From Eledone cirrhosa (taxonomy: Eukaryota): a DNA stretch of 64,000 bases. Both the position numbers and the translations under genes were made by a program. Under the pieces are notes generated by a model. That model ran no database searches and was not told where the DNA came from. It saw nothing but the letters and a program-made list of their open reading frames with translations. Shown one piece after another: positions 8,792-61,176 of the stretch (the stretch's first letter is position 1; the number at the start of each line of letters is the position of its first letter). The stretch lies in NCBI GenBank assembly GCA_964016885.1, contig OZ024741.1, positions 175,956,001 to 176,020,000 of the forward strand. Direction: 5' to 3'.

Positions 8792-8930
8792 ATTACGGCC
8801 CTTGCCATTCTGAGTTCAAATCCCGCCCAGGTTAACTTTGCCTTTCATCCTTACGGGGTCGATAAAATAAAGTACAAGTAATACTGTGGGTAATTGCTGG
8901 CCTTGTGCCTACCGTAGAAACAGTTATTAT
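8792..8930 (+). mobile_element. tRNA-SINE family A inserted in the PLE ORF
   Basis: gagttcaaatcccgcccaggttaactttgcctttcatccttacggggtcgataaaataaagtac. Confidence 0.85.
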
Positions 8931-17873: not shown

Positions 17874-18049
17874 TTATAATAGAATATAAAAGAAAAACGA
17901 ACACGCACATATACATATATGTGTTCACATCGTAAGGGATCGGATTCGCTAAGGTGAAAAGAATACAAACTATAGACAATTGGGTTTGCTTGTCTCAATT
18001 TAAAAAAAAAAAAATAAATAAATACAAACCGGACTTGTGGTAACTACCA

Positions 18050-18124
18050 ATCACCCAGACAACTTGTTGTTTCGCAATGTTAATTGTGAATAGAATTACC
18101 AATTCACGCTCATCAGTGTTTGAT
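18050..18124 (-). ncRNA. Type I hammerhead (inverted-arm copy)
   Basis: atcaaaca CTGATGA gc..gc GAAA caac aa gttg TC tgggtgat. Confidence 0.75.
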
Positions 18125-18640
18125 GAATTAGTATCCTAGACACTTCTAAGTATATTAAGAACTGAATAGTGTGCTATATATAAAATAGCGCACATGGTGT
18201 CCTAGCTTGTCTCACAAACTTACACCACTAAAAATAGCAGCCAGGTTTATTCGACATTTGAAATAGCTCACCAAATTAACGGAGCCGAATATATCATTCT
18301 TATCACCTTACCGAATCCGGTCCCTCACGATTTGAACACATATATGTATATGTCTGTGTTCGTTTTTCTTTTATATTCTATTATAATATACGGCTCGGAA
18401 ATATCTCTTTCTTAGAGTTATTTTGTTGTAAGAAACTATTTTGAGTTCCTAACTCAATATATACCTTTGATATATTCGGCTCCGTTAATTTGTTGAGCTA
18501 TTGCAAATGTCGAATAAACCTGGCTGCTATTTTTAGTGGTGTATGTTTGTGAGACACGCTAGGACACCATGTGCGCTATTTTATATATAGCACACTATTC
18601 AGTTTCTTAATATACTTAGAAGTGTCTAGGATACTAATTC

Positions 18641-18718
18641 ATCACCCACTGATGAGCTTGAATCGGTAATTCTATTCACAATTAACATTGCGAAACAACA
18701 ACAAGTTGTCTGGGTGAT
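18641..18718 (+). ncRNA. Canonical type I hammerhead ribozyme
   Basis: atcaccca CTGATGA gc..gc GAAA caac aacaa gttg TC tgggtgat: perfect 8-bp stem I, 5-bp stem III, GUC. Confidence 0.88.
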
Positions 18719-18961
18719 TGGTAGTTACCACAATTCTGGTTTGTATTTATTTTCTTAAATTTTTCTTAAATTGAGACAAGAAAACCCAATTGTCTATAGT
18801 TAGTATTCTTTTCACCTTAGCGAATCAGGTCCGTTACGATTTGGACACATATATCTATATATCTGTGTTCGTTTTTCTTTTATATTCTATTATAATATAC
18901 GGCTCGGAAATATCTCTTTCTTAGAGCTATTTTGTTGTAAGAGACTAAAAGATTGTAACCA

Positions 18962-19399: not shown

Positions 19400-20340
19400 T
19401 TGGGTCTTTCATATCATTGATGAAATATAGTTGTAAATATGTTGGTTCTTCTTCTGAAAGTGGCTGAAGTAGTCCAATTCTATGGGATACATACCATAGC
19501 ATCTTGAACGTGGGTATAAAGCCACCTTTATGGATATTTGCAGCAAATTACGTCATTTGGAATGCATTATTGTATTTTTGGATTTTGGATTATTTTTGGA
19601 TTGGCAGTATCGGTAGAGGGTCGGACGTCATGCTTTGAAGAAATGAGTTACGGCTCTTTATGATCTGAATTCAAATCCCTCCGAGGTTAACTTTGCCTTT
19701 CAACCTTATGAGGTCGATAAAATAAAGTACCAGTAATACACTGGGATAATTGCTGGCCTTGTGCCAAAAATAGAAACAATTATTGTATTTTTGAATATTT
19801 TGAAGAAAGTATCTTAACTCAGTAGTTGTAGCAATCAAGGGTTCTGGTGATTCAGGTAATAGTTTAAACTTAATTTTTCCATTTAAACAGCACATTGTTT
19901 AGTACCTCAATTTGGACAAATTTTGTTCATTGAGTTCGTTGATTTAAAGGTTCTGAAGCATAGTTATGATGTGAAATGTAACTAAAAGCAATATTTTAAA
20001 ATTATAAATCGTCTGTTCTTGCTCTCTGTTCACATAACCTTTGAGTTGTTTGGAGTTTTATTTCTCTTCATTTTCTACTTTAATCATTTGCAATCTTAAT
20101 GACTTTTGTACATCTGATCCCTCTTGACGAGTAGCTGCTTTCATTGTGCTATCTTTAGCAAGTCTTTTGATCTCTGTTCGTCTCATTCATCCAGTCTATT
20201 TTGTGCACTTCGTATTCTTTGTTGTTAAAGCCTTGATAATCTTTGTGCATCTGATTCATCCTATCTGTTTTGTACTGCAATTTCGTACGTCTCATTTCTC
20301 TTGACTCTGTTGCATTTTCAGCATGTTATCTTAATACCGT
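19400..20340 (-). pseudogene. Helitron RepHel N-terminal relic
   Basis: MCCLNGKIKFKLLPESPEPL..FLQNIQKYN|NAFQMT*FAA..GFIPTFK..HRIGLLQP..EEPTYLQLYF; split by a SINE. Confidence 0.8.
19590..19779 (+). mobile_element. tRNA-SINE family A with target-site duplication
   Basis: Family A sequence flanked by attattgtatttttg duplicates (~19566 and ~19779). Confidence 0.85.
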
Positions 20341-20490
20341 GCTGTTCAAAATAAAACATGTCTTACGAAAATCGACCAATGATTAATAAAAATTATTAAT
20401 TTTATACGGGGTGTATGTATGTATGTATGTATGTATGTATGTATGTATGTATGTATGTATGTATGTATGTATGTATGTATGTATGTATGT

Positions 20491-21969
20491 TCTTCTGGTT
20501 TTATAATTTCACAAATGTTTGCCAATAGAGAGAGAGAGTCGGTTTCTAACATAGTTACAAAACTCTCTCATTGGAATTTACACAACATCAACTAGGTAGA
20601 TTATCTATGCATGCATGTGTAGATATGGATGTTATTGTATGTGTGGATGTGTGTGTTTTGAGTTGTATGTATGCATGTGCGTACGCTTTATATCTGTACA
20701 TATGTATATGCAGTTATTAGATCCAAATTGTTTGGAATGTTTTACATATTTTTACTGTTCCATTAATGGATGTACTTGTAATTTCCTAAATAGTTGTGTT
20801 CTTTCTGTTTCTGTGAGGCTCAGCTTCTCAAGATTTGTATTGAGGCAGTTACTAACATATCCCAGTGCGCCAATAATCACAGGCATAAATTTGAAGGTAT
20901 AGTCAGAGTGGAGTATCTGCAGATTTCTCATTAGTTCTGCATAAATATTCTCCTTTTCACTAATCTTTGATATTATATTGGCATCTGCTGGGCAGCTAAC
21001 TTCCTCTACTGTGCATGCCTTCTTTTGCCTGTCCCATATCATTATATCTGGTCTGTTATGCCTGCATTTATTGAGGTTTTTACTGGAAAATTCCACCAGT
21101 ACGCTTTCATATTATGTATATGTATGTCTACCACACAGCTGTAGATTTTATTGTGTTTATTATCGGAACAATCTTTTCTACGGATTGCATTGTACATTGT
21201 TTTGGCCACTACATCATGCCTCATAGGTAGATAGTACCGCGATGACATCTTTGGACAGCTGCTTATGGCATGGGTGATATCCTCGATGTTAATTCTGCAG
21301 AGTCTGCACTTGTCACATCTAGGTGTTTTTCCTGCATCCCTATCTCCTTTGTGATTCAGGTATTTCGTGTTGATTTCCTGTTCTTGGATTGCAAAAGCGT
21401 ATCCTTCAAAGTGGGAGCCAATAAAGCGGTTGTTTGTCCAAGATAGACTACTTTATTTGTCTATATTACCTTCACTCTGGAGCTTCCTGGCAACATATCC
21501 ATGCATGATTTTTTGCTGATAAGCATGCAGTTTTTCATCCATGGATTCACTGCGGTAGTGCTGAGCGACTTCCCTGGGTGTGAGTTTTTGATTATCACAC
21601 AGAGTTCCTTCCCAACTCTCATGATCTTATCTGTAGATTGACTTTCTCAAGAGACGGCCTCCTACGCTTCGAGGTTCGTAGATGTCGGAGGAATAGGATG
21701 CGACATTCAAATGCTTTCCGGACTGATGTTAGGCCTCTGTCTCCCTGCTTACGTTTCAGGTAAAGGCGGTCTATGTCACTGTTGATGTGGAAGTTTCCGC
21801 TGTTGTTTAGTACTTTTCGAGTTCTAACATCAATTGCTCAGATTTCGTCATTCGACTAATTGAGTATTCCAAACGTTTGTGTAAGGACAAGCACAGCAAA
21901 CACATTGTGAGCCACTACTTTATTGTGTGCAGAGAGTTCCGATGACCATATTTTTCTTAATCGGGTGTA

Positions 21970-21970
<1 letters not shown>
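20491..21970 (-). mobile_element. R4/Dong-type RLE retrotransposon family B, 5'-truncated and degenerate
   Basis: KIWSSELSAHNK, MSSRYYLPMRHD, HNRPDIMIWD..EEVSCP; (TATG)n on both sides. Confidence 0.9.
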
Positions 21971-22000
<30 letters not shown>

Positions 22001-22099
22001 TGTATGTATGTATGTATGTTTTCTCTTTCTCTTAATTTCGAGTATATTTTTTTGACCGGCCACCTTCCTGGTGGCAAGGTTGTAAAAGGAAAGAAATTG

Positions 22100-22588
22100 T
22101 CATCCCTTGAATCGCAAGAATGTTTTGCAAATTTTGAAGGTGCCAGCTATCGCAGCCATTTGTAGACCATGAATTAGGGAGCTGCGCTTTTTGTCCGCAA
22201 ATCCAAGTTCGGTCATACTTTGGTCCAAGCGGGTTGGTATATAACCCGTAGCACCAATAATGATGGGCACGAAGCTAAAGGCGTATCTTGGATACTGGAT
22301 TTGTAAGCTCCTCATCAATGGTCCGTAGATGTCCTCCTTCTCCTGTATTTTTCTGACAACGTTTACATCAAGTGGGCAGCTGATCTCCACAACAGAACAC
22401 GTTTTCAATGTGTGGTCCCAAACTACAACATCAGGCCGGCCGTGCTTCAATTTGGTGGCAGCCTTTATCTCCAGGCTCCACCAGCATTCCCCAGTGCCAT
22501 CTGTCTCAATATATTCCTCCTCGTTTGCTGTTAATTTTGTTTTCCGAAGTGCGTTCCAGATAGCTCTAGCTATCCCATCGTGTCTCAT
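22100..22588 (-). CDS. Restriction-like endonuclease (RLE) domain, frameshifted continuation of 22585-25608
   Basis: RHD..HGRPDVVVWD..VVEISCP..KEDIY; the related family B copy reads RYYLPMRHD without a break. Confidence 0.92.
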   Translation of the reverse strand: MRHDGIARAIWNALRKTKLTANEEEYIETDGTGECWWSLEIKAATKLKHGRPDVVVWDHTLKTCSVVEISCPLDVNVVRKIQEKEDIYGPLMRSLQIQYPRYAFSFVPIIIGATGYIPTRLDQSMTELGFADKKRSSLIHGLQMAAIAGTFKICKTFLRFKG

Positions 22589-25500
22589 GGGAGGTAGTAG
22601 CGAGATGACATTCTTTCGCAGCTGGCAACAATGTGGCTTACATCCTCGATCTTTGTTTCACATAGCCTACATTTATTGTCAGCTTGCTGCCCTCCTCTTT
22701 TGTGCAGCAGATATTTGGTAGGGGGTTCTTGTTCCTGTATTGCATAGAGATATCCCTCAAGGTATGATGTCATAAACTTGTCGGAACTCCATGCCAGGCT
22801 TTCCGAGTGGTTTATCCCCTCCATGGTCTGTGTTTTACGCCTCAAGTATCCATGCACAACTTTCTCTGTAAATTGGTCAATTTTTTTTTCTTGTTTGAAC
22901 ATTGAATAGGATCCTCCGATTTCTCTGGGTGAGAGATTTATATCAGGCTTCATTCCATATCTCTCCTCCAGATCAGTCGCCACCCCAATGATATTTCTTC
23001 CTTCATGCTCATAAACCTGAGCAAGATGGTCGCCAACCTTTTTCCTCTGTTGAAGGTGCCGCTTCAGTGTTACTATCCGGGTCTCATATGTTGTTAATAT
23101 TGATTTTAGACCCCAGCCACCTTCCTTGCGTGAGAAGTATAGCCCATCCACATCACCATTGATGTTAAAGTTCCCAGTAACACCGAGAAGTTTTCGAGTT
23201 CCAACATCCATCTCACTTAGTTCTTGCAATGACCAGTTCAGTAGGCCAAATGTTGGCGTTAGAATTGGCACAGCATAGGTATTGTGGGCAATGTATTTGT
23301 TGTATGCTGACAGTTCTGATGACCATATTTTTTTTACTCTTCTGAGGTATTCAGTTCTGGTTCTCTCCTTATTTATGGGTCCATCATATCTGACATTCTC
23401 ATCCTGTCCAAGATATCTGTAGTTGTCACCCGACTGCAGAGGCCGCACTGTCAGGCCGTTCATATCCAGACCTCCAGAGGAGGGCACAGCTCCTCCACGC
23501 CCCACTGCCAAATATGCACACTTGGACTCACCAAATTTCATTTTGATGTCGGTCGAAAATTGTGCAACGAGGTCCAACCGTTTCTTGATGCCATTGACAC
23601 TTGGCCCATACAACTTCAGGTCATCAACAAAGAAAAGATGGGAGATACTTCTGGGCCCACTTCTTTGTCCACCTTGTTTCCTGAGTAGGTAAGATAGTGG
23701 ATTCAGTGAGAGAACGAAGAGTAGTACCGACAAGCTATCACCCTGAAAGATGCCCTTCTGGTAATGTATCCCATCAGTCTTAACCTGCTCCCTCTCACCT
23801 CTAAGGATCAAATTGGTGTACCAGTTCTTGGTCAGGCGTTCAACAGCAGCTACTAATGGTTGTGGGACTTTAGCTAACTGTAAAGCCTTAATAATCCACC
23901 CATGAGGTACACTATCAAATGCTTTTTGATAGTCCAGCCACACGACAGTCATGTTTCTGCGATTCTTTGTTGTTTTTTCCTGAATCATTTTGTTAGTTAG
24001 TAGGTGATCTATGCAACCCCACACCTCCCTCTTTCCACCAGCTTGCTCAGGTGTTATGATGTTGTTGGTAGCACAGTGATCCTGTAAGAACAGGTTAAGG
24101 CACCCAGTATATAATTTATACATGATGTTTTGGCAGGCAATTGGGCGGTAATTTTTAGCAAGGGTGGTTTGGCTATTTTGGGGAATGAGGAGAGTAGTGG
24201 CAGTTGATAACCATCTGGGCAGTTCTTGTGTGCCCTTAATGGTTTCTGTAAACAGCCGTATGAGATCTTGCCGATATAAAGTGAAATTCTTCAACCAGTA
24301 TCCTGTAATGAGGTCTGGGCCTGGCGATTTCCTATTCGACATTTTCTGTAGAGCTGTTTCCAGTATTGACCCATCTATGTCATATTGTTTTGTCTGGACA
24401 TGTTGGCAGTAGTCCTGTTCCAGTTGTTTTAGCCAACTAGCTTGTCTGTTGAATCCGTCATCCGTTTCCCATACAGATCTCCAGTAGTTCTCAACCTGTT
24501 CTTTTGAAGGGGTGTCGTTTACAGGGATTGAGATTTTGCCACCGAAGCTGCGATAAACTGATTTAGGATCTCTGGCAAACAATCTATTTAGCACTTGTCG
24601 TTTATGGGCTGTTGACTTATATTTTAGTCTTTCTGTTGTAGCTGTGAGTTGTTGTTTCAACTGGTGTAATTTGGAGTTCAAAGTTTTAAATTTGGTATCT
24701 CCAAATCGTCTCTCTAACTTTTTCTTTAGGTCTTCCTGGTGTCGTGTGAAGTTTCTCTCTATGTTGCATTTCATAACGACTGCGATGTGTGAGATACTTC
24801 GTCTCAGGGACAAAATTTTGGTTTTTAAATTTCGCATCCACGCTGGTTCAGGCTTTCTGTTTGTATCTTGATTGCGTGGTTTTAGATGTGTGTTATATGA
24901 TAGCAATGTGACAGCTGAAACATATAACAAAACATTGAGCGTTTCAAATGTCGTTTCTACACCTTTAGATCGTATAGCCTTCAGATAATTGCCAGCTATT
25001 TCGTTCACTGCTTCCAATTCCAATTTAGTGGGTTCTTTACTGACTCTAGTGTTGTATGGTCTGTCACTCACATTAAGGCTGTGTATCTCTTGAAACATAT
25101 CGTTCCATATCACTTGTAGGGTGCCCACAAGTTTTTGGTGCTCTGTTTGTTCAGTAGAGTCATGAATTGCAGCCTCGTTGTTGATGTGGTGACAATTACT
25201 ACTAGAGTCAGCTGACCTTTCTCGCTGTTCTTCAGTGGAAGTGGGATGGATTTCAGCAAAATTGTTGGTGAGCTGTTCACTGTTAGATTCAGCTGGCCAT
25301 TCTCTTTGTCTGTCAGTGGAGGTGGGGTGGTTGTCTACAAGGGCTGTATTTGTAGTATCACTCGATTCCGTTAGATGTATCAATTTACATCTAATGATAC
25401 GTTTTGCCTGTTCATTTAGATGCTTTGGAGAAAAGTCTAATTCTGGGTGTTTGGAGTTCCATAAAGTTTTTAGCCTTTGCATAAAACCGAACTTTTGAGG

Positions 25501-25608
25501 TTCAGATTGTTTGTATGCTTCATATAATTCTTTGTTAAGCTCGCAGCTCCACTGTATACAACGGTTGTAATTGCGATTTGGTCGAAGGAGACTTGTACTT
25601 TTTGCCAT
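22585..25608 (-). CDS. Non-LTR retrotransposon protein: N-terminal Myb-like region, RT, CCHC knuckle
   Basis: KSPGPDLI, NYRPIAC, WLDYQKAFDSVPH, GIFQGDSLS, LFFVDDLKLY, YRYLG, CRLC..EDVSHIVASC. Confidence 0.95.
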   Translation of the reverse strand: MAKSTSLLRPNRNYNRCIQWSCELNKELYEAYKQSEPQKFGFMQRLKTLWNSKHPELDFSPKHLNEQAKRIIRCKLIHLTESSDTTNTALVDNHPTSTDRQREWPAESNSEQLTNNFAEIHPTSTEEQRERSADSSSNCHHINNEAAIHDSTEQTEHQKLVGTLQVIWNDMFQEIHSLNVSDRPYNTRVSKEPTKLELEAVNEIAGNYLKAIRSKGVETTFETLNVLLYVSAVTLLSYNTHLKPRNQDTNRKPEPAWMRNLKTKILSLRRSISHIAVVMKCNIERNFTRHQEDLKKKLERRFGDTKFKTLNSKLHQLKQQLTATTERLKYKSTAHKRQVLNRLFARDPKSVYRSFGGKISIPVNDTPSKEQVENYWRSVWETDDGFNRQASWLKQLEQDYCQHVQTKQYDIDGSILETALQKMSNRKSPGPDLITGYWLKNFTLYRQDLIRLFTETIKGTQELPRWLSTATTLLIPQNSQTTLAKNYRPIACQNIMYKLYTGCLNLFLQDHCATNNIITPEQAGGKREVWGCIDHLLTNKMIQEKTTKNRRNMTVVWLDYQKAFDSVPHGWIIKALQLAKVPQPLVAAVERLTKNWYTNLILRGEREQVKTDGIHYQKGIFQGDSLSVLLFVLSLNPLSYLLRKQGGQRSGPRSISHLFFVDDLKLYGPSVNGIKKRLDLVAQFSTDIKMKFGESKCAYLAVGRGGAVPSSGGLDMNGLTVRPLQSGDNYRYLGQDENVRYDGPINKERTRTEYLRRVKKIWSSELSAYNKYIAHNTYAVPILTPTFGLLNWSLQELSEMDVGTRKLLGVTGNFNINGDVDGLYFSRKEGGWGLKSILTTYETRIVTLKRHLQQRKKVGDHLAQVYEHEGRNIIGVATDLEERYGMKPDINLSPREIGGSYSMFKQEKKIDQFTEKVVHGYLRRKTQTMEGINHSESLAWSSDKFMTSYLEGYLYAIQEQEPPTKYLLHKRGGQQADNKCRLCETKIEDVSHIVASCERMSSRYYLP

Positions 25609-26249
25609 GATGAGTTCGTCTATTCACTAATATTTTGTATTTATTTTTTTTAAATAGTCGATGATCTTCTTTAAAAGTTACGACAAAGTTCTGTCAGAAT
25701 CAAATTTAAAGTTATTCACAGCTTGGGTAATATTTCTCTTCAGTTAGTTTTTAATTCTACAACTGTGTTTTAAACGTTGTTCTTGAATCGTTTGAATCGA
25801 GAACAAAAAGAACCGTTACTTAGTATATTCCTTTACGAATGCAACATAATATAACAACGCTGTATTTATATGTTAAAGTTTATGTATCATTCATATAAAT
25901 AGGTGTTCTACAACATATTCACAACATTCACAGTTCAAACACTTATATTTTTGTTTCTGAATCGAAAACGTTACTTCTATATTTCTTTATAAATGCAATA
26001 TAACAACGTTGCATTTATATGTTAAAGTATATGTATCGTTCATATATCATAAGTGTATGTATCGTTCATATAAATAGGTGTTTTACAACACACTTACAGT
26101 TCAAACACTTATGTAGAATTATTGTATGTAATCTTACCGCGTAATGTAGCTCAACTTTTTCCAATATATGGTATGTTGCCTTCATGTAAGCCGTAATTAC
26201 ACACGTCCGATTATCGGACACTGACCACAACGGTCGCCATATGTACGCC

Positions 26250-26280
<31 letters not shown>

Positions 26281-26322
26281 TGTATGTATGTATGTATGTA
26301 TGTATGTATGTATGTATGTATG

Positions 26323-26842
26323 TCAGGTCGCTCTCGAGTGCTACTGGTAACATGTAACCCAGGACAACCTATCTCATGGTCGATGCGTCGGCGACTAAAC
26401 GGTAACCCCACCAAGATAGCTTGGTGAAGAGGGTGTTATTTGGACACACTGCTGGAGTAAATACAAGACCCGACAAAAGGCGGAGGAACTCAGCAGAGTC
26501 AACGGCCATCCAAATAGTAGTTTTTTTGTTTTTTGTATTTTTTTACCTGGTAGTAAAAGGCTCCGAACACGTTTCTAGGAGAGGGAAACTCTGAAAAAAA
26601 ACCCTGCGTTTCGGAATCATCCGATGATGTTGACTAATTCTCCTTTTCAGGTAGTGTTTTCGATGCCCAGAGAGTGAGATTGGTCGAGTGCAAGGCCTTT
26701 CCCCATTTAAAAGAACTTCAAATGACAAGTATTGCATTTTTAGGATATGTTACAAGTTCGTTTGGCTGGCGGCAACCTAAATGTACACCAAACTCTATAA
26801 TCTGACAAGCGATTGCAATACTCTTAGCAGTTTGTAGCCATC
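26323..26842 (+). mobile_element. Non-autonomous RTE-derived element, type 2
   Basis: 5' homologous to type 1 (tgctactggtaacatgta..ggcgactaaac; ctaggagagggaaactctga); relative at 44625-45118; (TATG)n flanks. Confidence 0.75.
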
Positions 26843-26918
26843 ATGTATGTATGCATGTATGTATGTATGTATGTATGTATGTATGTATGTATGTATGTAT
26901 GTATGTATGTATGTATGT

Positions 26919-27402
26919 TTTCTCTTTCTCTTAATTTCGAGTATATTTTTTTTGACCGGCCACCTTCCTGGTGGCAAGGTTGTAAAAGAAAAGAAATTGT
27001 CATCCCTTGAATCGCAAGAATGTTTTGCAAATTTTGAAGGTGCCAGCTATCGCAGCCATTTGTAGACTATGAATTAGGGAACTGCGCTTTTTGTCCGCAA
27101 ATCCAAGTTCAGTCATACTTTGGTCTAAGCGGGTTGGTATATAACCCGTAGCACCAATAATGATGGGTATGAAGCTAAAGGTGTATCTTGGATACTGGAT
27201 TTGTAAACTCCTCATCAATCGTCCGTAGATGTCCTCCTTCTCCTGTATTTTTCTGACAACGTTTACATCAAGTGGGCAGCTGATCTCCACAACAGAACAC
27301 GGTTTCAATGTGTGGTCCCAAACTACAATATCAGGCCGGTTGTGCTTTAATTTGGTGGCAGTTTTTATTTTCAGGTTCCACCAGTATTCCTTAGTGCCAT
27401 TT
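26919..27402 (-). mobile_element. R4/Dong family A, 5'-truncated copy
   Basis: Highly similar to 22019-22500 with the same 3' end; (TATG)n on both sides. Confidence 0.92.
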
Positions 27403-27521
27403 GTATGTATGTATGTATGTATGTATGTATGTATGTATGTATGTATGTATGTATGTATGTATGTATGTATGTATGTGTGTATGTATGTATGTATGTATGT
27501 ATGTATGTATGTATGTATGTA

Positions 27522-27748
27522 TCTTTCACGGCACAGGCATTGCTTTATATCTGGAGATCTCTCTGCACTTGTCATCACATGGTACCATGGGTCCAGCACT
27601 ATGTGTCAATAATTGTTACAAGTGTAGTGTTTGTACCAGAGTTTTCATGTCGCTGGCTGGACTAAAAAGTCACACTCGTTCAGCGCAGTGGTTCTACTAC
27701 ATGGATATAATGTAGTGGCCGTGCTCGAAAACGAGTTGGCAGCCACTC
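27522..27748 (+). mobile_element. RTE-derived type 1 element, 5'-truncated
   Basis: Matches 28488-28717; CYKCSVCTRVFMSLAGLKSHTRS remnant. Confidence 0.8.
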
Positions 27749-27814
27749 TGTATGTATGTATGTATGTATGTATGTATGTATGTATGTATGTATGTATGTA
27801 TGTATGTATGTATG

Positions 27815-28062
27815 TTCTTCTGGTTTTATAAATTCACAAAGTTCTACCAATAGAGAGAGAGTCGGTTTCTAACATAGACCCTAGACTCTCTCAGTGGAAT
27901 TTACACAACATCAACTAGGTAGATATGCATGCATGTGTAGATATGGATGTTATTGTATGTGTGGATGTGTATGTTTTGAGTTTATGTGTGCATGTGTATA
28001 TGCTTTGCATCTGTGTATATGCAGTTATTAGATGCAAAATGTTTGGAATGTTTTACATATTT
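27815..28062 (-). mobile_element. R4/Dong family B 3' UTR fragment
   Basis: Matches 20491-20752 including the 3' terminus. Confidence 0.85.
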
Positions 28063-28108
28063 TGTATGTATGTATGTATGTATGTATGTATGTATGTATG
28101 TATGTATG

Positions 28109-28717
28109 TCAGGTCACCAGTTGGTGCTACTGGTAACATGTATCCCAGTACAACCTGTCTCATGGTCGGGTCGTTGGCGACTAAACTGGCAACCCCACCA
28201 AGGTTTCTTGGTGAGGAGGGTGACTTTGGACATCCTGCAGGACTAAAAACAAAACCTGTCAAAGGGCAAAGGAGCTCTTAAGAGTCAATGGCCATCCAAA
28301 ATCACCAGGAGAGATGACCCCTTAGCCTTTGTCAAGGCAGAATTCTAGGAGAAGGAAAACTCTGATATAACACCTGCAACCCTGATGGTATCCAATGATG
28401 TTGACTTGTTCTTCTTTTTGGTAAATATCATCTTGGTTAAGAGAGTGGGACTGGCTTTGTGCAGTGCCTTTGCTCACTATAAAAGCTTCACGGCACAGGC
28501 ATTGCTTTATATCTGGAGATCTCTCTGCACTTGTCGTCACATGGTACCATGGGCCCAGCACTATGTGTCAATAATTGTCACAAGTGTAGTGTTTGTCCCA
28601 GAGTTTTCAAGTCACTGGCTGAGACTAAAAAGTCACACTCGTTCAGCGCATCGGTAGGAGTTCTCCTACATGGATATAAAGTAGTGGCCGTACTCGAAAA
28701 TGAGTTGGCAGCCACCA
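28109..28717 (+). mobile_element. Non-autonomous RTE-derived element, type 1 (full)
   Basis: Reverse complement of 2253-2858; (TATG)n flanks. Confidence 0.82.
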
Positions 28718-28736
28718 TGTATGTATGCATGTATGT

Positions 28737-29140
28737 AGGACAAAAAACCAAACCCTGACAAACGGCAGAAGAACTCATAAGAGTCAACGGCGATTCGAAA
28801 TTGTGTAAATATGTATATAGACATGTACGGCGCTGTTAAACCACTGGGAATGAAGGACCCTAGCCTTTGTCAGGGCATTCTTCTAGGAGAAGGCAACTCA
28901 GGAAACTGGGATAACTCCGATATAACACCTGCGTCTTAGTAGTTAACTATGATGTTGATCTCTTCTTTTTTTCGAGTTATAGCTACTGTCGCTCAGAGAG
29001 TGGGATTAGCTCAGTGCACAGTCTTTCCTCACTTGAAAAAATATCTTCACGCACAGGCATTACACGATAGAATTAATTAATAATTATTAATAATGGTATA
29101 TCGTGCAATGTCCATACTCGATAACGAGGGGGCAGCCATC
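28737..29140 (+). mobile_element. RTE-derived element, type 3 (5'-truncated)
   Basis: Shares gagtcaacggc, ctagcctttgtcagggc, ctaggagaaggcaactc, cttcacgcacaggcatt and ggcagccatc-(ATGT)n with type 1. Confidence 0.7.
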
Positions 29141-30157
29141 ATGTATGTATGTATGTATGTATGTATGTATGTATGTATGTATGTATGTATGTATGTATGT
29201 ATGTATGTATGTATGTATGTATGTATGTATGTATGTTTGTATGTATCTTTGTATGTTTGTATGTTGGTATGTATCCATATATTATGTACGTATGTATGCA
29301 TGTATGTATGTATGTATGTATGTATGTTTGTATGTGTGTATGTATGTTTGTATGTTTGTATGTTGGTATTTATCCATATATTATGTACGTATGTATGCAT
29401 GCATGTATGTTTGTACGATGAAGTCATTTGTTTTTAACGCTCAACGTCATATATAGCTTCAATTCTGTTGTTGTAGTTAATGACAGAGTATTCGTACAAT
29501 AATGATACGTATGCGAATACGAGATGTTCATAATTGATTCTATTATGAAGATCCTTGTAATACGTATTTCTGTAGGGTTAATAATTACGTAATGATGCGT
29601 TCAATCAATTACAAAAATGTGTTCTTCAGACAGCATTTTAGATAATACATATGTGGAGGGATATTTGTAAAAGCAGCATCGAATACAAGTCGGACCCCTT
29701 ATCAATAGCCTACATTATATTAGAAGTATTACATAATACATATATGATGTTGCCTGAAGAAGTCGTGTCTTTGATTACATGATCAGAACATTACTTAATT
29801 ATTAACGCCAGAGAAATACTTATTACAACGACCTTCATAATACAATGAATTACGAACATATAGCCTTCACATTTATATCATTATATATATGTTCGTGTGT
29901 GTATGTGTGTGTGTGTGTATGTGTGCGTGTCTGTGTGTGTGCGTGTCTGTGTGTGTGTGTGTGTGAGCGTGTCTGTGTGCGTGCGTCCGGCTACCGATGT
30001 GGGATTTTAAGTTTGGTAATTTACGAAGCAGAGTGTTAATAATAATAGGGAGCAGGAACGATCAGATCAAGGAACAAGCGGTCGGGATGGGGCACAGACT
30101 CGAGAATCGATAGCTCTTTACACTTGTGGACTCTCATTTCGGCTCCTTATTATATAT

Positions 30158-31510: not shown

Positions 31511-31968
31511 CTATTCTCAGCTAAGTCTCCAGGCAATGCGCGGACACTAGGGACTCATATAAAAATAATAATAATTCGGTGGATGGAACAGCTAGCGAGG
31601 ACTGAACTCCAAAGCACCGAAAAAGTTCACTGCCTCTGGTCAAATGGCAGATTCTAAAGAATCAATCACGTGACACTGAGGCTAGTCGGAAGGAGTGGGG
31701 TAGTAAAATGACAAAGCCTACTACCACAACAATAAGTTAGTAGTGGATTTGGCAGGTTTGCTCAACAAATAAATAATTTGGAGATAAATATAGAGAATTA
31801 GTATATCTACGAACATATGCGTACAGATGTATACTAATGCTAGCAAATACATAAGTTATGTCATAGTACCTAGGTGGTTCAATGCAGGAGGATGCAGAAC
31901 AATTATATGAAAGACGTAAAATAATAAAATTTTAAAAATTAAAAATTAACTTACTTACTAAAATTTTC

Positions 31969-32050
31969 ACTCCAACTAATTAGTTTCTATAATGGGATAA
32001 AGATAGTTACGTAATGTAACTGTCGAGAATTCATTACGTCATCAGGGAGT
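31969..32050 (-). ncRNA. Type I hammerhead, copy 2
   Basis: Same motif 540 nt from copy 1. Confidence 0.8.
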
Positions 32051-32160
32051 CTATTCTCAGCTAAGTCTCCAGGCAATGCGCGGACACTAGGGACTCATAT
32101 AAAATTAATAATAATTCGGTGGAGTGTCCGCGCATTGCCTGGAGACTTAGCTGAGAATAG

Positions 32161-32242
32161 ACTCCCTGATGACGTAATGAATTCTCGACAGTTACATTAC
32201 GTAACTATCTTTATCCCATTATAGAAACTAATTAGTTGGAGT
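32161..32242 (+). ncRNA. Type I hammerhead, inverted copy 3
   Basis: actccCTGATGAcgtaatg...cattataGAAActaattagTTggagt. Confidence 0.8.
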
Positions 32243-32410
32243 GAAAATTTTAGTAAGTTAACTTTTAATTTTTAAAATATTCTTATTTTACGTCTTTCAT
32301 ATAATTGTTCTGCATCCTCCTGCATTGAACCACCTAGGTACTATGACATAACTTATGTATTTGCTAGCATTAGTGTACATCTGTACGCATATGTTCGTAG
32401 ATATACTAAT

Positions 32411-34134: not shown

Positions 34135-35072
<938 letters not shown>

Positions 35073-35149
35073 ATATATATATATATATATACTTTATACT
35101 TTATATATATAGACTTTAATGTATTCGTGAGTAAATAATAATGATTTTT

Positions 35150-35358
35150 AGTATAGGGACAAGGCCAGTAATTTGGAGGACGGGAAAGTCGATTAAGTCG
35201 ACCCCAATACGTTACTGGTACTTTATTTTATCGACCCCGTAATGATGAAAGGCAAAGTTAACTTCGGCGGGATTTGAACTCAGAATGTAAAAAACATAAC
35301 TCTATGCTGCAAAGTATGGTGTCCGACTCTCTACCGATACTACCAATCCACCGCCCTT
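35150..35358 (-). mobile_element. tRNA-SINE family A
   Basis: Near full-length reverse complement of 53121-53350. Confidence 0.85.
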
Positions 35359-35385
35359 CGTGAGTGAATGATACTGATATTATAT

Positions 35386-36344
35386 AACTAGACATGAAAA
35401 ATGCGCAAGCTCAAAAGTGCCACAGAATGTTATAATAAACCTTCAAAAGTGTGGGACTAGAGTTGTTGCTAAAAAATATTGTAATCATTATATATCGTAC
35501 ATTCTGTGGCATCCTTTATAAAAATAGCTTAAACCAACGAAGCCTTTATTTTTACGCTATTTCACTTAGTTAATTCTTAGAGTGTAACATATAAAAATAT
35601 GATTTACAACTATAAAATAAATTAATTAATATAATAACAGAGCTGCGGAGCTGAAATTTAGGAAATAATGGAGTATCGGATCCTGAGTTGGAGCCAGTCA
35701 ATTTTTGACCGACTCCGCAGCCCTGTATAATACATTTCATATTAAAGTTATTAATAAACCTATTTTACACTTCATGCAAATTACCACGAGATATTGATAT
35801 TAGATATAAGATACAGCGCAATATCTACAGCTGTAAAAGTACGAAAGCGAAGTAATAATAAGTGGCTTAAGGTAATTCCAATATGAAAGTTTGTAGTGAT
35901 AAAAATTTGATAATGCAATACGATTGTTAATATTATAGTTCTATGAAAATGTAACAATAGATAACTAAATTATTTTACTATTAGTATATTTAAGAAATTA
36001 TCATTATAGATTTGATCGTTCATATAAGCATCATATTAAGTTTCAACACAATTATTTTGTTACTATGAGTATATGATAATAATATTACGTAATTATTTAT
36101 AGCTGTTATTACATTAAACATAGATGTATTTATTTTTATATGTTACACTCTAAGAATTAACTAAGTGAAATAGCGTAAAAATAAAGGCTTCGTTGGTTTA
36201 AGCTATTTTTATAAAGGATGCCACAGAATGTACGATATATAATGATTACAATATTTTTTAGCAACAACTCTAGTCCCACACTTTTGAAGGTTTATTATAA
36301 CATTCTGTGGCACTTTTGAGCTTGCGCATTTTTCATGTCTAGTT
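35386..36344. mobile_element. Fold-back element with 214-bp apparently perfect inverted repeats
   Basis: 35386-35599 is the reverse complement of 36131-36344; AT-rich spacer. Confidence 0.75.
35638..35725. mobile_element. Tiny hAT-like MITE
   Basis: TIRs cagagctgcggag / ctccgcagccctg; flanks tataataa / tataatac (7 of 8 match as TSD). Confidence 0.7.
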
Positions 36345-36907
36345 TAATATTTTTTTAAGGCAACGCTTGTAATAACTCTAGTTAAACAGGATATATATTA
36401 ATAATAAATTATCGTTGTAATGTAATTAGATTATGTAATTGTTATTATAAATTATCTTATAAATATTAGTGTAAGATGTATAAAAATATTTTCAGACTTT
36501 TAATATAAACAACTACAAAAAACAATCAATATTAAATCAATATATTATACATAATAGAAAACATAAAATATACAATACAAAAACAAAATATTTACATACA
36601 TTTGCAATTATCAGTGTATATACATTTTCTTTATATTCCCTGAGCAAATTAATAAGATTTGTTTTTATTGTACATAATTTGATGACTTGTTGGAGTGTAT
36701 TAAAAGATAGCAACAATTTGTGATTAAATTGTTATCTTAAGCAACTCACTTTTTAATAGTTGTTGGCTGAGCGAAATTGTAAAAGCCTATGAGCAAATAT
36801 AAAAAAAAATACACAAACAACATTTCCTTGTGTTATTACAACATTAGATAAAATAATTGAGCAATGTCGTTATATTTTGCTCTTATTGCACATTAATAGT
36901 GTTTCTA

Positions 36908-37065
36908 TTTTTCGGCACAAATCCATTACGGCAGTCCATTACTGGTACTTTATTTTATCGAATTAGTAAGTATGAAAGTCGAAGTTAACCTCGGCAGGAT
37001 TTGAACTTAGAATGCAAAGGACCATAACAATACTGCAAAGCATGGTGTCTGACGCTCTACCAATA
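36908..37065 (-). mobile_element. tRNA-SINE family A
   Basis: actggtactttattttatcga..gttaacctcggcaggatttgaac. Confidence 0.8.
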
Positions 37066-37457
37066 CTTGTGTTGAGCTGGTCATTAATTTATGGTGGTCG
37101 TGCGTGGAGTAGAGCAATCGCTAGTTGAAATATTATGAACAAAACATTTTTATTTGCCGAAGAACATATTTTCAATACTGTTTGTGAATGTGACGAAGGA
37201 AATACATTCTGATATGGAACAGTGTACAAAGTGTGTCTGTGAATAACATAATGTTACCTCATGTTGTTGTCAAGACATAATGGATTTCGTTTATCCAGTT
37301 AGAAGATGAAACCTAGCCATCTCGGATTAGTTATATTTCATGCCATGTGTAAACGTGTTTGAGGATAGCAAAATATGCGCGTTAATTATAATAATTAGTT
37401 AATAATATTACAAAATATACCTAATTAAACTCTTTGCTTGAAATTTTATCATTCTTC

Positions 37458-44624: not shown

Positions 44625-45118
44625 ATGATGGCTGCAAACTCTGCTAAGAGTAATGCAATCGCTTGTCAGATTACAGAAACTGGTGCACTTTTAGGCTACA
44701 GCCAGCCACACGAACCTCATAGCCTGAACAAGCAATGTCTGTGCTTTGAAGGTTTTTTAAGTGAGGAAAAGCATTGCACTCGACCAATCCCACTCTCTGG
44801 GCATCAAAAACACTACCCGAAAAAGAGAACTGGTCAACATGATCGGATGCTTCCGAAACCGTAGGTATTTTTTCAGAGTTTCTCTCTCTTAGAAAGGTTC
44901 TGTGACAACAACTGGTGGCCTTTCACTCCCAGGTGAAAAAGAAAAGTACTATTTGGATGGCCGTTGACTCTGCTGAGTTCCTCCGCCCTTCGCCGGGTCT
45001 TTTATCTTATCCTGCAGGGTGTCCAAATATCACCCTCCTCACCAAGCAGGCTTGGTTCGGTAGCCGGTTTAGTCGCCGACGAACCAATCATGAGACAGGT
45101 TTACTGGCTTACATGTTA
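44625..45118 (-). mobile_element. RTE-derived element, type 2
   Basis: Reverse-complement homology to 26350-26842. Confidence 0.75.
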
Positions 45119-45348
45119 TTAAATATTAATAACATTTATTTTGATATTTTGCTCCTTATAACAGTCTTTGCTCTCTCTATGTGTGGTTGAGCACTTTTCT
45201 TTGAGTGGTTTCGGGGTGCCTTTCTAGCCGCTCGTGTCACAAAGACCACTGGATCACTGTCCTTCACACGCACTTACTTCTCTATACTACGTGTTGCAAG
45301 GTGGTTATCCTAAATCTTCGTAGAGTTGTCTGGAATGTATTTACTTAA

Positions 45349-50867: not shown

Positions 50868-51052
50868 GTGGATTGGCAGTATCGGTAGAGGGTCGGACTC
50901 CATGCTTTGCATGAAGGAGTTACGGCCCTTTGCGGTCTGAGTTCAAATCCCGCCGAGGTTAACTTTGCCTTTCATCCTTACAGGGTCGATAAAAAAAATA
51001 CCAATAATACACTGGGATAATTGCTGGCCTTGTTCCAAAGGTAGAAACATTT
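50868..51052 (+). mobile_element. tRNA-SINE family A
   Basis: gtggattggcagtatcggtagag..gagttcaaatcccgccgaggttaactttgcc. Confidence 0.88.
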
Positions 51053-52288
51053 ATTTCTTTAAACCAATAAAATATAATTGAGGCACCATAATTCCAAGCT
51101 TAAATTTCCAATACTCCTTTTTACCGAGTGGGCAAATGATCAAATTGATCATCTAGCTTTAGTAAACCTATTGTCACACAGTTTGCTCAATGATAATTTT
51201 GTAACTCATTTACGCATATTTTTTCCAAAACTTCATTTTATTAAATATATTCTAAAACATGTTTTATATGTACATTTTGTCAGCCGCTACTTTCTTGTAT
51301 ATGTGTTCCATTCATAGGTGTGGTTGTGGCTTTAGAAATCTACCAGCAATATTTTATTTCAATCTGTTTCATTAACTACTTTTCTGTTAGTACGTTTGTA
51401 GTTTAACTGATATCAGAGATTTTGTTGCTCTGTCAATATTCGTTTTATGTAAAAAGAGTCACTATGGTAGTATATGGCTTGAGGTGAATGAAAACAAATG
51501 TGTGTGGTTGTAGAACGAAAATACATGTGAAAGAAAGCAGACAGGTGGGAAAGAGGGAAGAATGGAGATAACAAGAGAGAAAGATAGAAAATATATATAT
51601 TTCTTCTTTTTTGTAAAGTTAGATGCACCAAATAAATTTTTTATAAAAGAAGAATCTGTAAGTTTTCAGATCTCAAAACATTTCAAAATGTTTACACATC
51701 CAAAGAGAATGTTTCATACAGCAAATTACTTCTTTGAAATCTGGACTTTCATGTTTGCTTTAGAATTTCTAACAAACCTGTCCCTATGTAGAATTTTGAC
51801 ATATAATTAAACTTGACAGCTGTAATGCCTTGATAGATAGTTACTACAGTTCCTCTCAAATATAACCACACGGTGTTTTGACTAGTTTGCTATAGATTGA
51901 GAGGATTTCATAATACAAATTCTAAATCACTTAAATACGTTCACAGCTTTTATTCAAGTTACTCATAGTTAGATTGTATGTTGTTGATGTTGTATAGAGC
52001 AGACCTATGATCAAAGAAACCATTCCAGCCACCAACATTGTGTAATCTTTTTATATCAGCGAGTATGTAATTCAATCTATCTCTTTTAGGAAGAATTGAC
52101 TGTTGATTCTAGCATCTTGTGTGACACATTTATAGGTTTGTATAAAGACGTAACTTTTGATTGATTCGTAGGGGTGCCGTAGGGATCTGAGGCATTTAAA
52201 ACCTGGTGGGGATCATCCTTCTCCAGCTGATCTCTTTCAGAGTAGGTGAGAGAGAGAGGGATATATGTATATTAGAGAGAGAGAGAAA

Positions 52289-53120: not shown

Positions 53121-53350
53121 GGTTTGGGGGCGGTGGATTGGCAGTATCGGTAGAGGGTCGGACGCCATGCTTTCCAGCATAGAGTTACGTCCCTTTACGG
53201 ACTGAGTTCAAATCCCGCCGAGGTTATCTTTGCCTTCCATCCTTACGGAGTCGATAAAATAAAGCACCAGTGACGTACTGGGGTCGATTTAATCGACTTT
53301 CCCCTCCCGCTAAATTACTGGCCTTCTGCCAGTAATTACTAGAAATCATG
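53121..53350 (+). mobile_element. Full-length tRNA-SINE family A with TSD
   Basis: A and B boxes; atttaatctt duplicated at 53111 and 53351. Confidence 0.9.
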
Positions 53351-53740
53351 ATTTAATCTTCGTTCTCTACTCATTCTTTAATATCCCTTTGTTCTGCCAG
53401 CCTGAACTCCATTCTCATTACATACCTCTCAACTATTTTTCCTTGTAGTACTGCATTTTAAAAATGTTTTTTGCTAGTCTAAGACAACTGCACCACCATA
53501 GACTCAGCTTTTACCTCTAAACACTCGTCTCCTGATGTCTTCTATTCCTACATTTATCACTGATTCCTATATTTTTATTTGCCTAGCCTGGTCACTTAGC
53601 TTTTGCCTACATCGACGTATCCATTTTGAGCTAGATAGAACGTATTCGATTCATATAACCAATTTTATTTGGTTGACGCCGACTATAGCAACTTACGTCC
53701 TATCGAATATATTTCAGTCAATATTTCCTTTTATTTTCGA

Positions 53741-57591: not shown

Positions 57592-58677
57592 TTAAATTAG
57601 CCATGTCAGCTCATTTCTCTCAGCCCGGTTGTTAAGTGGGGGTCTGAGGTTCTTAATAACAAGTGCTTCCTTTATCCTTAAGGATCCGATGCTGCGTTCA
57701 GTCGCTAGGACTGTGACCAAGGGTCTGCCCTGTGGGTTTCCGCATTTAAGGATGTGTTTACGGAAGGAAGATGCGTTGGTGTTGACATGTTCCTTGATAC
57801 GAACATGTAGGGGTCGGATGGTGCTACCTATGTAGAACTTGTTACATTTATCGCATTGAATCTTATATACAACATAGGTGCGTAGGCAATCTGCCCCCCG
57901 TATCGGGCAGTTGCTGAGGGAACACGTCCCATCTGACTCGTCGGGTTTGTTGGAGAGGCATCTTCGGAGCGAAGGTCCTGTGTGGGCCAAATGTATGTCA
58001 AGTCCTTCCCTCCGTATGGCCCTGCGGATGGCGTTCGTGGTATATTCACTCAGGTGGGGGATTTTAAAGAAGCACCTGCTTTTATCTAAGTTTCTAGTGG
58101 GTGTCTGTCTATTGGGTCTGGGGTCTCTAATTCCGTTAATCAGTCGCTTGGGATATCCATTAGACTTGAGTAGATTACGGAATTGCGTGGTATGGGTAAG
58201 ACCACCCATCGGGTCGCTGCATCTATTAGTGATCCGTGTAAGTTCATTTAGGACATAGCCTCTCTTAGCGTTGTTGGGGAGGGCTGAGTTGTAATGCACA
58301 AATAAGTCCTTGCACGCTGCCTTGCGGTAGAAGGTGGTGTTTATGTCTCCTTCTTCCGAGATGTTGATACGGAAGTCGAGGAGGGCGAGTGACCCGTCTT
58401 CTCCAGGGTGTTCGATGGTGAAATCGACGTGATGGTCAGTGTCGTTGAAGATTTGGTGAATTTCATTCGCCATCTCCCGGGAAGAAGTGAGTATCAGTAT
58501 GTCATCGACGTATCTGGAGTAGAAGGCGACGGCGTTGGGTTGGCAGGTGTTGAGTGCCTTGCGTTCCAGGTGGTCCATGTACGAGATCGCAAGTATGCCG
58601 GACAGACTAGAGCCCATAGGCAGCCCAGAGATCTGTTTGTACGTGTGGCCGAGGAAATTGAAGAATGCATTATCCAC
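57592..58677 (-). CDS. Penelope-like RT plus GIY-YIG endonuclease (frame extends to ~58940 across one TGA at 58747-58749)
   Basis: SLDVVALYTSVP upstream; QISGLPMGSSLSG, SRYVDDI, FYRK, VVYKIQCDKCNKFYIGST..RIKEH..IKEALVI..P.LN. Confidence 0.93.
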   Translation of the reverse strand: MDNAFFNFLGHTYKQISGLPMGSSLSGILAISYMDHLERKALNTCQPNAVAFYSRYVDDILILTSSREMANEIHQIFNDTDHHVDFTIEHPGEDGSLALLDFRINISEEGDINTTFYRKAACKDLFVHYNSALPNNAKRGYVLNELTRITNRCSDPMGGLTHTTQFRNLLKSNGYPKRLINGIRDPRPNRQTPTRNLDKSRCFFKIPHLSEYTTNAIRRAIRREGLDIHLAHTGPSLRRCLSNKPDESDGTCSLSNCPIRGADCLRTYVVYKIQCDKCNKFYIGSTIRPLHVRIKEHVNTNASSFRKHILKCGNPQGRPLVTVLATERSIGSLRIKEALVIKNLRPPLNNRAERNELTWLI

Positions 58678-59096
58678 AACGAAGGAGAGGAGTTGGTGGA
58701 TGTCCGTGTGTGTGAGTCCGAAGCAGTGTAAGTTAGATGCTCGGACTCATTCGGTCAACAGGTCGGCGGCTGGGGATGCTGGTACGGAGGTATAAAGGGC
58801 GACCACATCAAGACTGAAGGCATATCCGTTGTCCTTTCTGGTGTTGGGCGCCAGATGGTGTAGTCGCTCCAACAACTCCTTTGAGCTGCAGACGTGGGCT
58901 GGTAGTGTGTGTATAATGGGTTTCAGTAGTGTATATACACACTACGTGAGAAATGTGTAAGGGATGAAAGGAGATAAGGAAAGGTAGATAACAGATAGTC
59001 GAGGTTCTGGATGGTACGAGTGTCTGTACACACTCACATAGATATTATAAGATGAAACAAACTTTTTTCTATATTATATATGTATTATGTAAAACA

Positions 59097-59262
59097 TGGT
59101 AGAGCGTCAGACACCATGTTTTGCAGCATAGTTATGGCCCTTTGCGTTCTGAGTTCAAATACGCCGAGGTTAACTTTGCCATTCATTCTTAAGAGGTAGA
59201 TAAAATAAAGTACCAGTGGTGCACTGGGGTAAATCGGTGGTCTTGTGCCAAAAGTAGAAACT
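59097..59262 (+). mobile_element. tRNA-SINE family A
   Basis: ggtagagcgtcagac..gagttcaaatacgccgaggttaactttgcc. Confidence 0.82.
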
Positions 59263-60424: not shown

Positions 60425-60994
60425 ATATATATATATATATATAAATATATATGTATATATGTAATAGATATTAATAATATATATATATATTTATAATATT
60501 AACGATAAGGAGCAGGAACGAAGTATAAATATAACATACACTATATATGTCGATATATATATGTGTGTGTAAACAATACTTAATAGAAAATATATGGACC
60601 CTCATGAAAGACGAAGATAAAATTATTACATTCGATTCAACTTTTATGATTTTATGTCGAATATTCAATTCGTCACTAGAAATTTTTCGAACACATATTG
60701 TTTCTTTTTTACATATAGCTGCCCTCTCTACCACTAACTGTTCATCTCTGAAATAAATGTGGAAACCATTTTTGGTGTCCACTCGCTAGTTTCTTTTATT
60801 AAATATCTGTGAACCAAAGAAGACTCGTACAGATGAACCAAGAGTTGATCTATTGATACAGGAGATGACGAAGGTGTGGTGTGACAAGTTGTGAGACGGA
60901 AACGTTGAAACTGAGCTTCCTCGTCTGCCAGCCCTGTAATGGGGACGGAAAAAGTATTCATCACGAAGATGAAGATGATGGAACAATCACACAT

Positions 60995-61176
60995 AATTGT
61001 TTCTACGTTAGGCACAAAGCCAGCAAATACCCAGTGCATTACTGGTACTTTATTTTATCGACCTAGTAAGGATGAAAGGCAAAGTTAACCTTGGCGGGAT
61101 TTGAACTCAGAATGGCAAGGGCCGTAACTCTGTGCGTCAAAGCATGGCGCCCGACCCTCTACCGATACTGCCAATC
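60995..61176 (-). mobile_element. tRNA-SINE family A
   Basis: Reverse complement of 50868-51052. Confidence 0.87.

Follow-up and report, generated by a model that had tools for sequence, protein, structure and literature searches.

A 64,000-nucleotide stretch of the Eledone cirrhosa contig OZ024741.1 (hereafter the window) carries a pile of retroelements at 20412–29415, in which nine TATG-type tracts (T1–T9) alternate with eight inserts (I1–I8). The four minus-strand inserts are copies of R4/Dong-type long interspersed nuclear elements (LINEs) with a restriction-like endonuclease (RLE) and fall into two families, A (I1 and I6) and B (I2 and I4). The four plus-strand inserts (I3, I5, I7 and I8) are RTE-derived non-autonomous elements of three related families (alpha, beta and gamma), to which two copies outside the pile, O1 and O2, also belong.

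Architecture of the pile and its elements

The components of the pile, with the two outlying copies, are as follows.

20412–20490, plus: T1, (TATG)n of ~20 units, at the 3′ flank of I1
20491–21970, minus: I1, R4/Dong family A, 5′-truncated, 1480 bp, with stops and frameshifts; CCHC knuckle and RLE present
21971–22019, plus: T2, (TATG)12
22020–26250, minus: I2, a nearly full-length copy (4231 bp) of R4/Dong family B
22429–22501, minus: dense cluster of A-to-G changes in I2, affecting 13 of 31 ancestral A and recoding the KHNRPD motif to KHGRPD
23431–23502, minus: a further dense cluster in I2, affecting at least 12 of 22 ancestral A and following closely on the reverse transcriptase core
26251–26323, plus: T3, (TATG)18, flanked by the 5′ ends of I2 and I3
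26324–26842, plus: I3, RTE-derived family beta, non-autonomous, 5′ end intact; 79% to O2
26843–26918, plus: T4, (TATG)19, flanked by the 3′ ends of I3 and I4
26919–27401, minus: I4, 3′ fragment (483 bp) of R4/Dong family B; the A-to-G changes of I2 are absent
27402–27522, plus: T5, (TATG)30, head-to-head, flanked by the 5′ ends of I4 and I5
27523–27748, plus: I5, 3′ fragment (226 bp) of RTE-derived family alpha, retaining the remnant of a zinc-finger-like peptide (CxxC...H)
27749–27815, plus: T6, (TATG)17
27816–28062, minus: I6, 3′ fragment (247 bp) of R4/Dong family A, matching I1 at 227 positions and differing from it at 20
28063–28109, plus: T7, (TATG)12, head-to-head, flanked by the 5′ ends of I6 and I7
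28110–28716, plus: I7, full-length copy (607 bp) of RTE-derived family alpha; 97.5% to O1
28717–28737, plus: T8, short and imperfect, 5 units, explicable as the tail of I7
28738–29140, plus: I8, RTE-derived family gamma, 5′-truncated, 403 bp
29141–29415, plus: T9, 24 perfect units, then a degenerate TATG array
2253–2859, minus: O1, RTE-derived family alpha, outside the pile; its 5′ side adjoins (TATG)n and its 3′ side (AT)n
44627–45120, minus: O2, RTE-derived family beta, outside the pile; ATGTATGT tail only, 5′ side without the repeat

These coordinates agree with the original prediction, made from the sequence alone, of nine (TATG)n tracts interleaved with eight inserts, and with its strict polarity: four R4/Dong copies of two families on the minus strand and four RTE-derived elements on the plus strand. 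By simple arithmetic, the chance of such polarity in both groups is 1/64. The same prediction had the R4 3′ ends joining the repeat in one phase, and all four do so, meeting it immediately before ACATAC (...GAAGA/ACATAC or ...GAGAAA/ACATAC). TATG-type tracts account for 900 of the 64,000 bases (1.4%) of the window, and all four of its R4 copies lie inside them (p ~4e-8, assuming independent, uniform insertion). No element body is interrupted by another of the eight inserts, though tracts make up only 9% of the pile. Nine TATG tracts in the window reach ≥10 units and each adjoins one of these retroelements, an association that does not imply an order of arrival.

The near-complete I2 contains a single open reading frame (ORF), running from 25608 to 22103, with an N-terminal three-helix Myb-like domain, a reverse transcriptase (RT; FVDD) and, at the C-terminus, a CCHC knuckle and an RLE. 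The RT matches Pfam RVT_1 (E=1.9e-23), with R2 proteins as its nearest solved structures, and the knuckle matches zf-RVT at E=3.6e-5, a score below that family's curated cut-off. No Pfam family matched over the RLE stretch. The pattern RPD...E...K..Y is the motif of this endonuclease, and both the CCHC and RLE motifs of I2 align with those of 22 homologues. The N-terminus is predicted to form three helices, with a predicted local distance difference test (pLDDT) score of ~90 over residues 21–70; most of its best structural neighbours belong to the Myb/SANT/trihelix domains, though their scores are weak (Z 4–5.4), and Foldseek returned no significant match for the domain. A C2H2 zinc-finger motif is absent from the N-terminal alignment of I2 and its homologues, from which the relative L006 was left out because of stop codons. 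R4/Dong elements combine RT and restriction-like endonuclease in one ORF with a Myb/SANT-like domain at the N-terminus and no N-terminal zinc finger (PMC7998251). As judged from its translated sequence, I2 has this architecture, by which it is placed in the clade, named Dong/R4 proteins not being included in the tree described below. Among named proteins, one of Argonauta hians comes closest, with 61% in the part that matched and 53% in a longer member of its cluster, a relationship that makes an octopod host likely. Protein identity between family A (I1) and family B is 45–52%.

We compared I2 with reads and contigs of four public runs (X1, X3, X7 and X18). A frame break near 22588 is private to I2, an extra base being present there in 694 of 999 X18 reads. 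Read depth on I2 in public runs drops ~100-fold from the 3′ to the 5′ end; depth is not copy number, and the drop fits a multi-copy, 5′-truncating LINE. The exact 3′ motif of family B had no match in metagenome contigs, and no RNA dataset was listed as containing I2, which is uninformative on expression. At the 5′ junction of I2 there is an 11-bp direct duplication (26235–26256), made up of the end of the target and the first five bases of the element, which perhaps reflects a restart of second-strand synthesis. HDV-like (hepatitis delta virus-like) 5′ ribozymes are known for R4 and Dong (PMC3774820). At the 5′ end of I2 no such ribozyme was matched in Rfam, and the fold of the 5′ 201 nt gave z=−1.2 in a model that leaves out pseudoknots; Rfam yielded only sub-threshold microRNA matches on the repeats.

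Repeat as target and repeat as tail

A TATG tract beside a retroelement may be its target or its own tail, and the arrangement of the pile distinguishes the two for the R4 copies. T3, T5 and T7 each adjoin two 5′ ends and so cannot be tails. Loose ends of public sequence aligned to I2 point the same way. Among the 24 of 2447 that were listed, nine are on the 5′ side, and two of these nine read into TATG: one in X1 at 22537 (two contigs) and one in X18 at 22753, where 447 reads, probably from a single locus, agree at 0.95. Neither truncation point was found among the copies in the window. Five of the nine are diverged element sequence, as judged by eye, and the other two, on AATT sites, are library joins. 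A set of X18 loose ends at 22034, 22098, 22130, 22175 and 22449 (agreement ~0.35), all on AATT in the window, was rejected as library joins.

A metagenome scan yielded 80 relatives, of which the 30 with long matches were checked for flanks and 50 were left out. Among the six top-ranked, L002 (a distant relative, 44%) has (CATA)n on both sides and joins it in the same 3′ phase as the copies in the window, its junction lying before CATAC; L003 has (CTTA)n on both sides and L006 has it at the 3′ end, both with junctions before CTTAC; in L001 and L005 it is the 5′ end that adjoins (CTTA)n; and no flanking repeat was seen for L004. The 5′ junction of L005 mixes CTTA and CATA units. A TAA-type tract lies downstream of 17 of the 24 remaining relatives. 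In a quick tree of 34 proteins, rooted at the midpoint only and with L013 and L023–L080 left out, the CATA and CTTA elements form one branch opposite 12 TAA-flanked rows, with a Shimodaira–Hasegawa-like approximate likelihood ratio test (SH-aLRT) value of 100; within it, I2 and L002 make up a sub-branch with support of 99, and the best matches of I1 fall in the same CATA/CTTA branch. This split places the element in a tetranucleotide-targeting branch of R4/Dong. Two distant relatives, P0062 and P0082, carry an additional PF02338 domain, which we take to be an OTU-like protease, in the same ORF.

The head-to-head tracts, the TATG at two 5′ truncation junctions and the two-sided (CATA)n of L002 together identify the repeat as the target of the R4 elements rather than their tail, and the same 3′ phase at CATAC and CTTAC junctions suggests a first nick at TAWG^TAWG. 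Microsatellite targeting by R4 is thus a very probable basis for the pile. The original prediction that families A and B are (CATA)n-specific is supported at the level of sequence; it was to fail if the repeat stood at the 3′ end only, and for R4 the repeat stands at the 5′ end as well. Insertion is site-specific for a microsatellite in all four copies in the window, at the two read junctions and in L002. The target is (CATA)n rather than the (TAA)n of Dong in the strict sense, and the TAA-flanked relatives lie on the other side of the tree. Neither a CATA nor a CTTA target for R4/Dong was found in the literature, although Repbase or Kojima and Fujiwara 2004 may list one, and the CATA/CTTA branch is possibly already in Repbase. 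Two points weigh against this account: the flank evidence is confined to the 64-kb window, four runs and metagenome relatives, with the loose ends limited as stated, and the tree comes from a quick search rather than a careful one.

The plus-strand elements follow a looser rule. Three of the four end in ...GCAGCCAYC/ATGT or a close variant, and I5 ends in CACTC/TGT. The three families have a common 5′ part and differing 3′ parts. I7 holds a stretch of more than 20 nt that matches the RTE 5′-region of OegopSINE/RTE-3_BF in an alignment with the supplement of PMC5786205, and this common motif fixes the sense strand of the elements. On sequence features, the plus-strand inserts fit bipartite non-autonomous RTEs. 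No autonomous RTE lies in the 64-kb window, and a 55-residue peptide remnant matched no longer protein at E≤1, which is weak evidence on an autonomous partner. TATG is present on the 5′ side as a long tract in four of the six copies (I3, I5, I7 and O1) and as five units in a fifth (I8); O2 has none, a case that counts against a strict target. The flanks of O1 and O2 make the association with the repeat a preference, not an absolute, and the ATGTATGT tail of O2, without a 5′ repeat, shows that ATGT is also an element tail. The predicted link between RTE elements and TATG therefore stands in part: the copies do land in TATG as described, but ATGT is also their own tail and the link is less strict than for R4. 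ATGT as both element tail and preferred landing site is consistent with tail-assisted priming, and a tail-assisted preference of this kind is reasonably probable; a tail-linked choice of insertion site has been proposed for RTE (PMC6007223). I3 and I7, of different families, have in common an interrupted tail with ATGC as its third unit (26843–26860 and 28717–28737), which may be an inherited variant.

Could the repeats instead all be element-encoded 3′ tails, the elements having inserted into one another's tails or at random with no endonuclease specificity? O2, with its tail and no 5′ repeat, is such a case, RTE elements commonly end in microsatellite-like tails (PMC6007223), and T1, T2, T4, T6, T8 and T9 each adjoin a 3′ end. 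T3, T5 and T7, however, touch no 3′ end, TATG occurs at two independent 5′ junctions, and L002 and L003 carry the repeat on both sides, so that this explanation, partly true for the RTE-derived elements, is already contradicted for R4 and as a whole is most improbable. It is also very unlikely that the pile arose by mis-assembly or local duplication, with loci joined through TATG tracts or unequal crossing-over between them. Families A, B and alpha do each occur twice, and an unrelated tandem duplicate shows that doubling by the assembly is possible: at 62382–63461, 489 bp recur at 99.8% identity 591 bp apart, through either a very recent duplication or assembly doubling. Paired copies in the pile, by contrast, differ in truncation point and in divergence (mismatches of 13/605 for I7/O1, 15/225 for I5/I7, 20/247 for I1/I6, 80/479 for I3/O2 and 24/482 for I2/I4), and I4 is not a copy of I2, since it lacks the changes that mark the latter. 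Eight of the nine tracts are ≤121 bp, the window contains no N, and a mis-join, too, would have to draw on genuine 5′ junctions with the repeat. The pile was likely built by independent insertions over time.

Other repeats in the window include a Penelope-like element fragment at 57592–58746 on the minus strand, a 384-residue open frame with RVT_1 and GIY-YIG matches, and a SINE-like (short interspersed nuclear element-like) repeat of ~190 bp, present in at least eight copies in both orientations and not tied to TATG tracts, at:

8793–8927
19597–19784
35137–35356
36890–37067
50869–51055
53128–53353
59098–59261
60993–61184

A-to-G changes in I2

Against its family, I2 shows a strong excess of one kind of difference, a feature that formed no part of the original prediction. 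On the plus strand, C>T (window C, reads T) outnumbers G>A by 102:22 in X1, 106:23 in X3, 183:86 in X7 and 185:87 in X18 (p 2e-13 to 3e-9 across the four runs), among 201 places of difference in X1 and 217 in X3; on the sense strand this means A in the family and G in I2. Among the 40 of 904 difference rows that were listed, 31 are of the A-to-G kind, and 30 of them were used, 24543 being omitted as present in only two runs. Between I2 and I4 there are 18 G/A differences and no A/G. I2 departs from residues conserved in homologues at 34 places, of which 11 are reachable by A>G, including KHNRPD to KHGRPD, and one by T>C; the departures reachable by A>G mark G as the derived state in I2. The changes are patchy, affecting 13 of 31 A in 22429–22501 and at least 12 of 22 in 23431–23502, as against 5 of 133 in 22020–22428. 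X3 contigs likewise differ from I2 at 34/716 and 19/433 bases in the edited stretches and at 2/394 and 2/297 elsewhere.

The sequence context resembles that of ADAR. Pooled over sites, 2 of the 44 changed A have G as their 5′ neighbour, compared with 140 of 507 unchanged A (p=2.5e-4), and a 5′ U is enriched at changed A (p=0.013). Depletion of upstream G is a feature of the ADAR motif common to animals including octopus (PMC5625713), and one report of the motif gives upstream G as 5.8% versus 24% (PMC2873906). CpG decay cannot account for the C>T differences: 35 of the 44 sites lie outside CpG in the window, and the changes run in the opposite direction. Long inverted repeats or palindromes of 83–99% identity lie at 31797–32410, 34654–35071, 17874–18895 and 35377–36350; these are possibly elements of the miniature inverted-repeat transposable element (MITE) kind and potential sources of double-stranded RNA. 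No inverted R4 copy that could serve as a double-stranded partner lies in the window.

Several observations weigh against editing by ADAR. The hypermutation is seen in one copy, I2. Among the other copies, I1 is without bias (4 A>G and 4 G>A among 21 departures), as are I4 (0 of 3 departures) and the RTE pairs. On the fully known I2/I4 segment, the depletion of 5′ G is not significant (1/17 versus 29/123, p=0.12), under a worst-case background correction its p value is 0.046, and changed A show no preference for a 3′ neighbour. At several edited sites no X1 contig has the window letter, so that this assembly is the one source in which the edited haplotype has been observed.

Because the edited haplotype is unseen in X1, X3, X7 and X18, the excess could be an artefact of a draft polished or patched with RNA-seq reads of hyper-edited transcripts, the RNA being real and the DNA not. 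Such an artefact would carry the same ADAR spectrum, and the best of the runs contains 0.48 of the words of the copy, none reaching half. On the other hand, the copy may be absent or collapsed in those samples and contigs drop rare variants; moreover, neither the neighbouring I4, which has the same orientation and 95% identity, nor I1 is biased, a boundary that polishing would not easily respect, and we regard this explanation as unlikely. Rather less likely still is that the changes are real in DNA but were made otherwise, by error-prone reverse transcription (for example, under a shortage of deoxythymidine triphosphate) or by a mutagen acting on RNA or cDNA. The restriction to a single copy and the weak 5′-G depletion on the fully known segment would suit such a cause, which has to contend with the patchiness of the X3 contig differences, the pooled depletion of 5′ G and enrichment of 5′ U, and the failure of CpG decay as an explanation. 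The A-to-G pattern itself is present in this assembly, and it is likely that ADAR made it and that it is genomic; most likely, the LINE RNA of I2 was hyper-edited before reverse transcription.

Proposed mechanism, comparison with known systems and significance

Taken jointly, independent R4/Dong and RTE-derived insertions into TATG tracts and ADAR editing of I2 before its reverse transcription probably account for the locus. On the model we propose, the RLE would cut 5′-TAWG^TAWG-3′ and target-primed reverse transcription would start there, so that, with a fixed cut phase, every R4 copy would read (CATA)n-element-(CATA)n. Joining at the R4 5′ end would be imprecise, with 1–3 nt of microhomology at some junctions. 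Each insertion would split a tract into two usable ones, and the pile would grow at tracts only. The positive feedback with ATGT-tailed RTE elements put forward in the original prediction might account for the pile and for how abundant the tetranucleotide is across the genome. RTE-derived RNAs ending in (AUGU)n may anneal to the nicked CATA strand and so insert in the opposite orientation; the R4 nick on the TATG strand and RTE priming on the CATA strand would together yield the opposite polarity of the two groups. The RNA of I2 would have formed double-stranded patches, probably by pairing with the antisense RNA of many 3′-truncated copies, and would have been deaminated from A to I, the inosines then being copied as G. 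We offer more tentatively, as a possibility that we consider less probable than its alternatives, a wider combination: in a cephalopod-like host, germline ADAR would edit LINE RNA before reverse transcription and so leave fossils of RNA editing in the genome; many young copies of R4 and of other LINEs, a considerable fraction, would already be hypermutated from A to G and disabled when they insert, as an editing-based defence parallel to that of vertebrate APOBEC; and an undescribed R4/Dong branch would have moved from TAA to CTTA to CATA, seeding its own target jointly with ATGT-tailed RTE elements.

Dong of Bombyx mori, DongAg and DongBg resemble the R4 copies described here in combining RT and restriction-like endonuclease in one ORF with a Myb/SANT-like N-terminus and in inserting into microsatellites, but their published target is (TAA)n (PMC7998251, PMC3812793), whereas it is (CATA)n here and (CTTA)n in branch mates. 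Among LINE groups with recent activity in Octopus vulgaris, Dong-R4 is the most numerous, at 1129 insertions (PMC13282606); the parts covered of two octopus papers (PMC13282606, PMC9115989) state no target for Dong elements. Waldo elements (WaldoAg1, WaldoAg2 and WaldoFs1) insert into ACAY repeats including ACAT, the same repeat as here (PMC3812793), but are of the apurinic/apyrimidinic endonuclease (APE) type and belong to the R1 clade, so that the common target is convergent. The RTE-derived elements are like RTESINE1/2, WALLSI3 and OegopSINE in having an RTE 5′-region motif, a short 3′ end and a microsatellite tail (PMC5786205). They differ from these bipartite RTE elements and SINEs in that their tail is (ATGT)n, in that three families combine one 5′ part with different 3′ parts, and in that most copies are embedded in a tract of the very repeat that forms their tail.

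APOBEC-edited retroelements fixed in vertebrate genomes are known cases in which one integrated copy, like I2, is hypermutated in clusters and with a strand bias (PMC4866542, PMC2873906). APOBEC edits, however, are G-to-A, are made on cDNA and affect mainly long terminal repeat (LTR) elements, whereas I2 shows sense-strand A-to-G in a LINE with an ADAR motif. Another precedent is that of retroviral proviruses with A-to-G hypermutation. A search of the literature found no report of ADAR-type hypermutated LINE copies in a genome. APOBEC-type edits were absent from 19 invertebrate genomes in a screen that selected G-to-A, not A-to-G (PMC4866542), and restriction of human L1 by ADAR1 has been described as not needing editing (PMC5974252).

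The pile itself is what one would expect of elements that target microsatellites, and it surprises less than the other findings. The wider interest lies in a natural series of closely related RLE LINEs with TAA, CTTA and CATA targets and one common cut phase, which lets one ask whether the Myb-like domain or the RLE reads the target, a question relevant to retrotransposon-based gene insertion. If the A-to-G changes are in the DNA, I2 would be a dated germline record of ADAR acting on retrotransposon RNA in a lineage known for extreme RNA editing. Were this true, a simple genome-wide screen could show whether editing disables LINEs.

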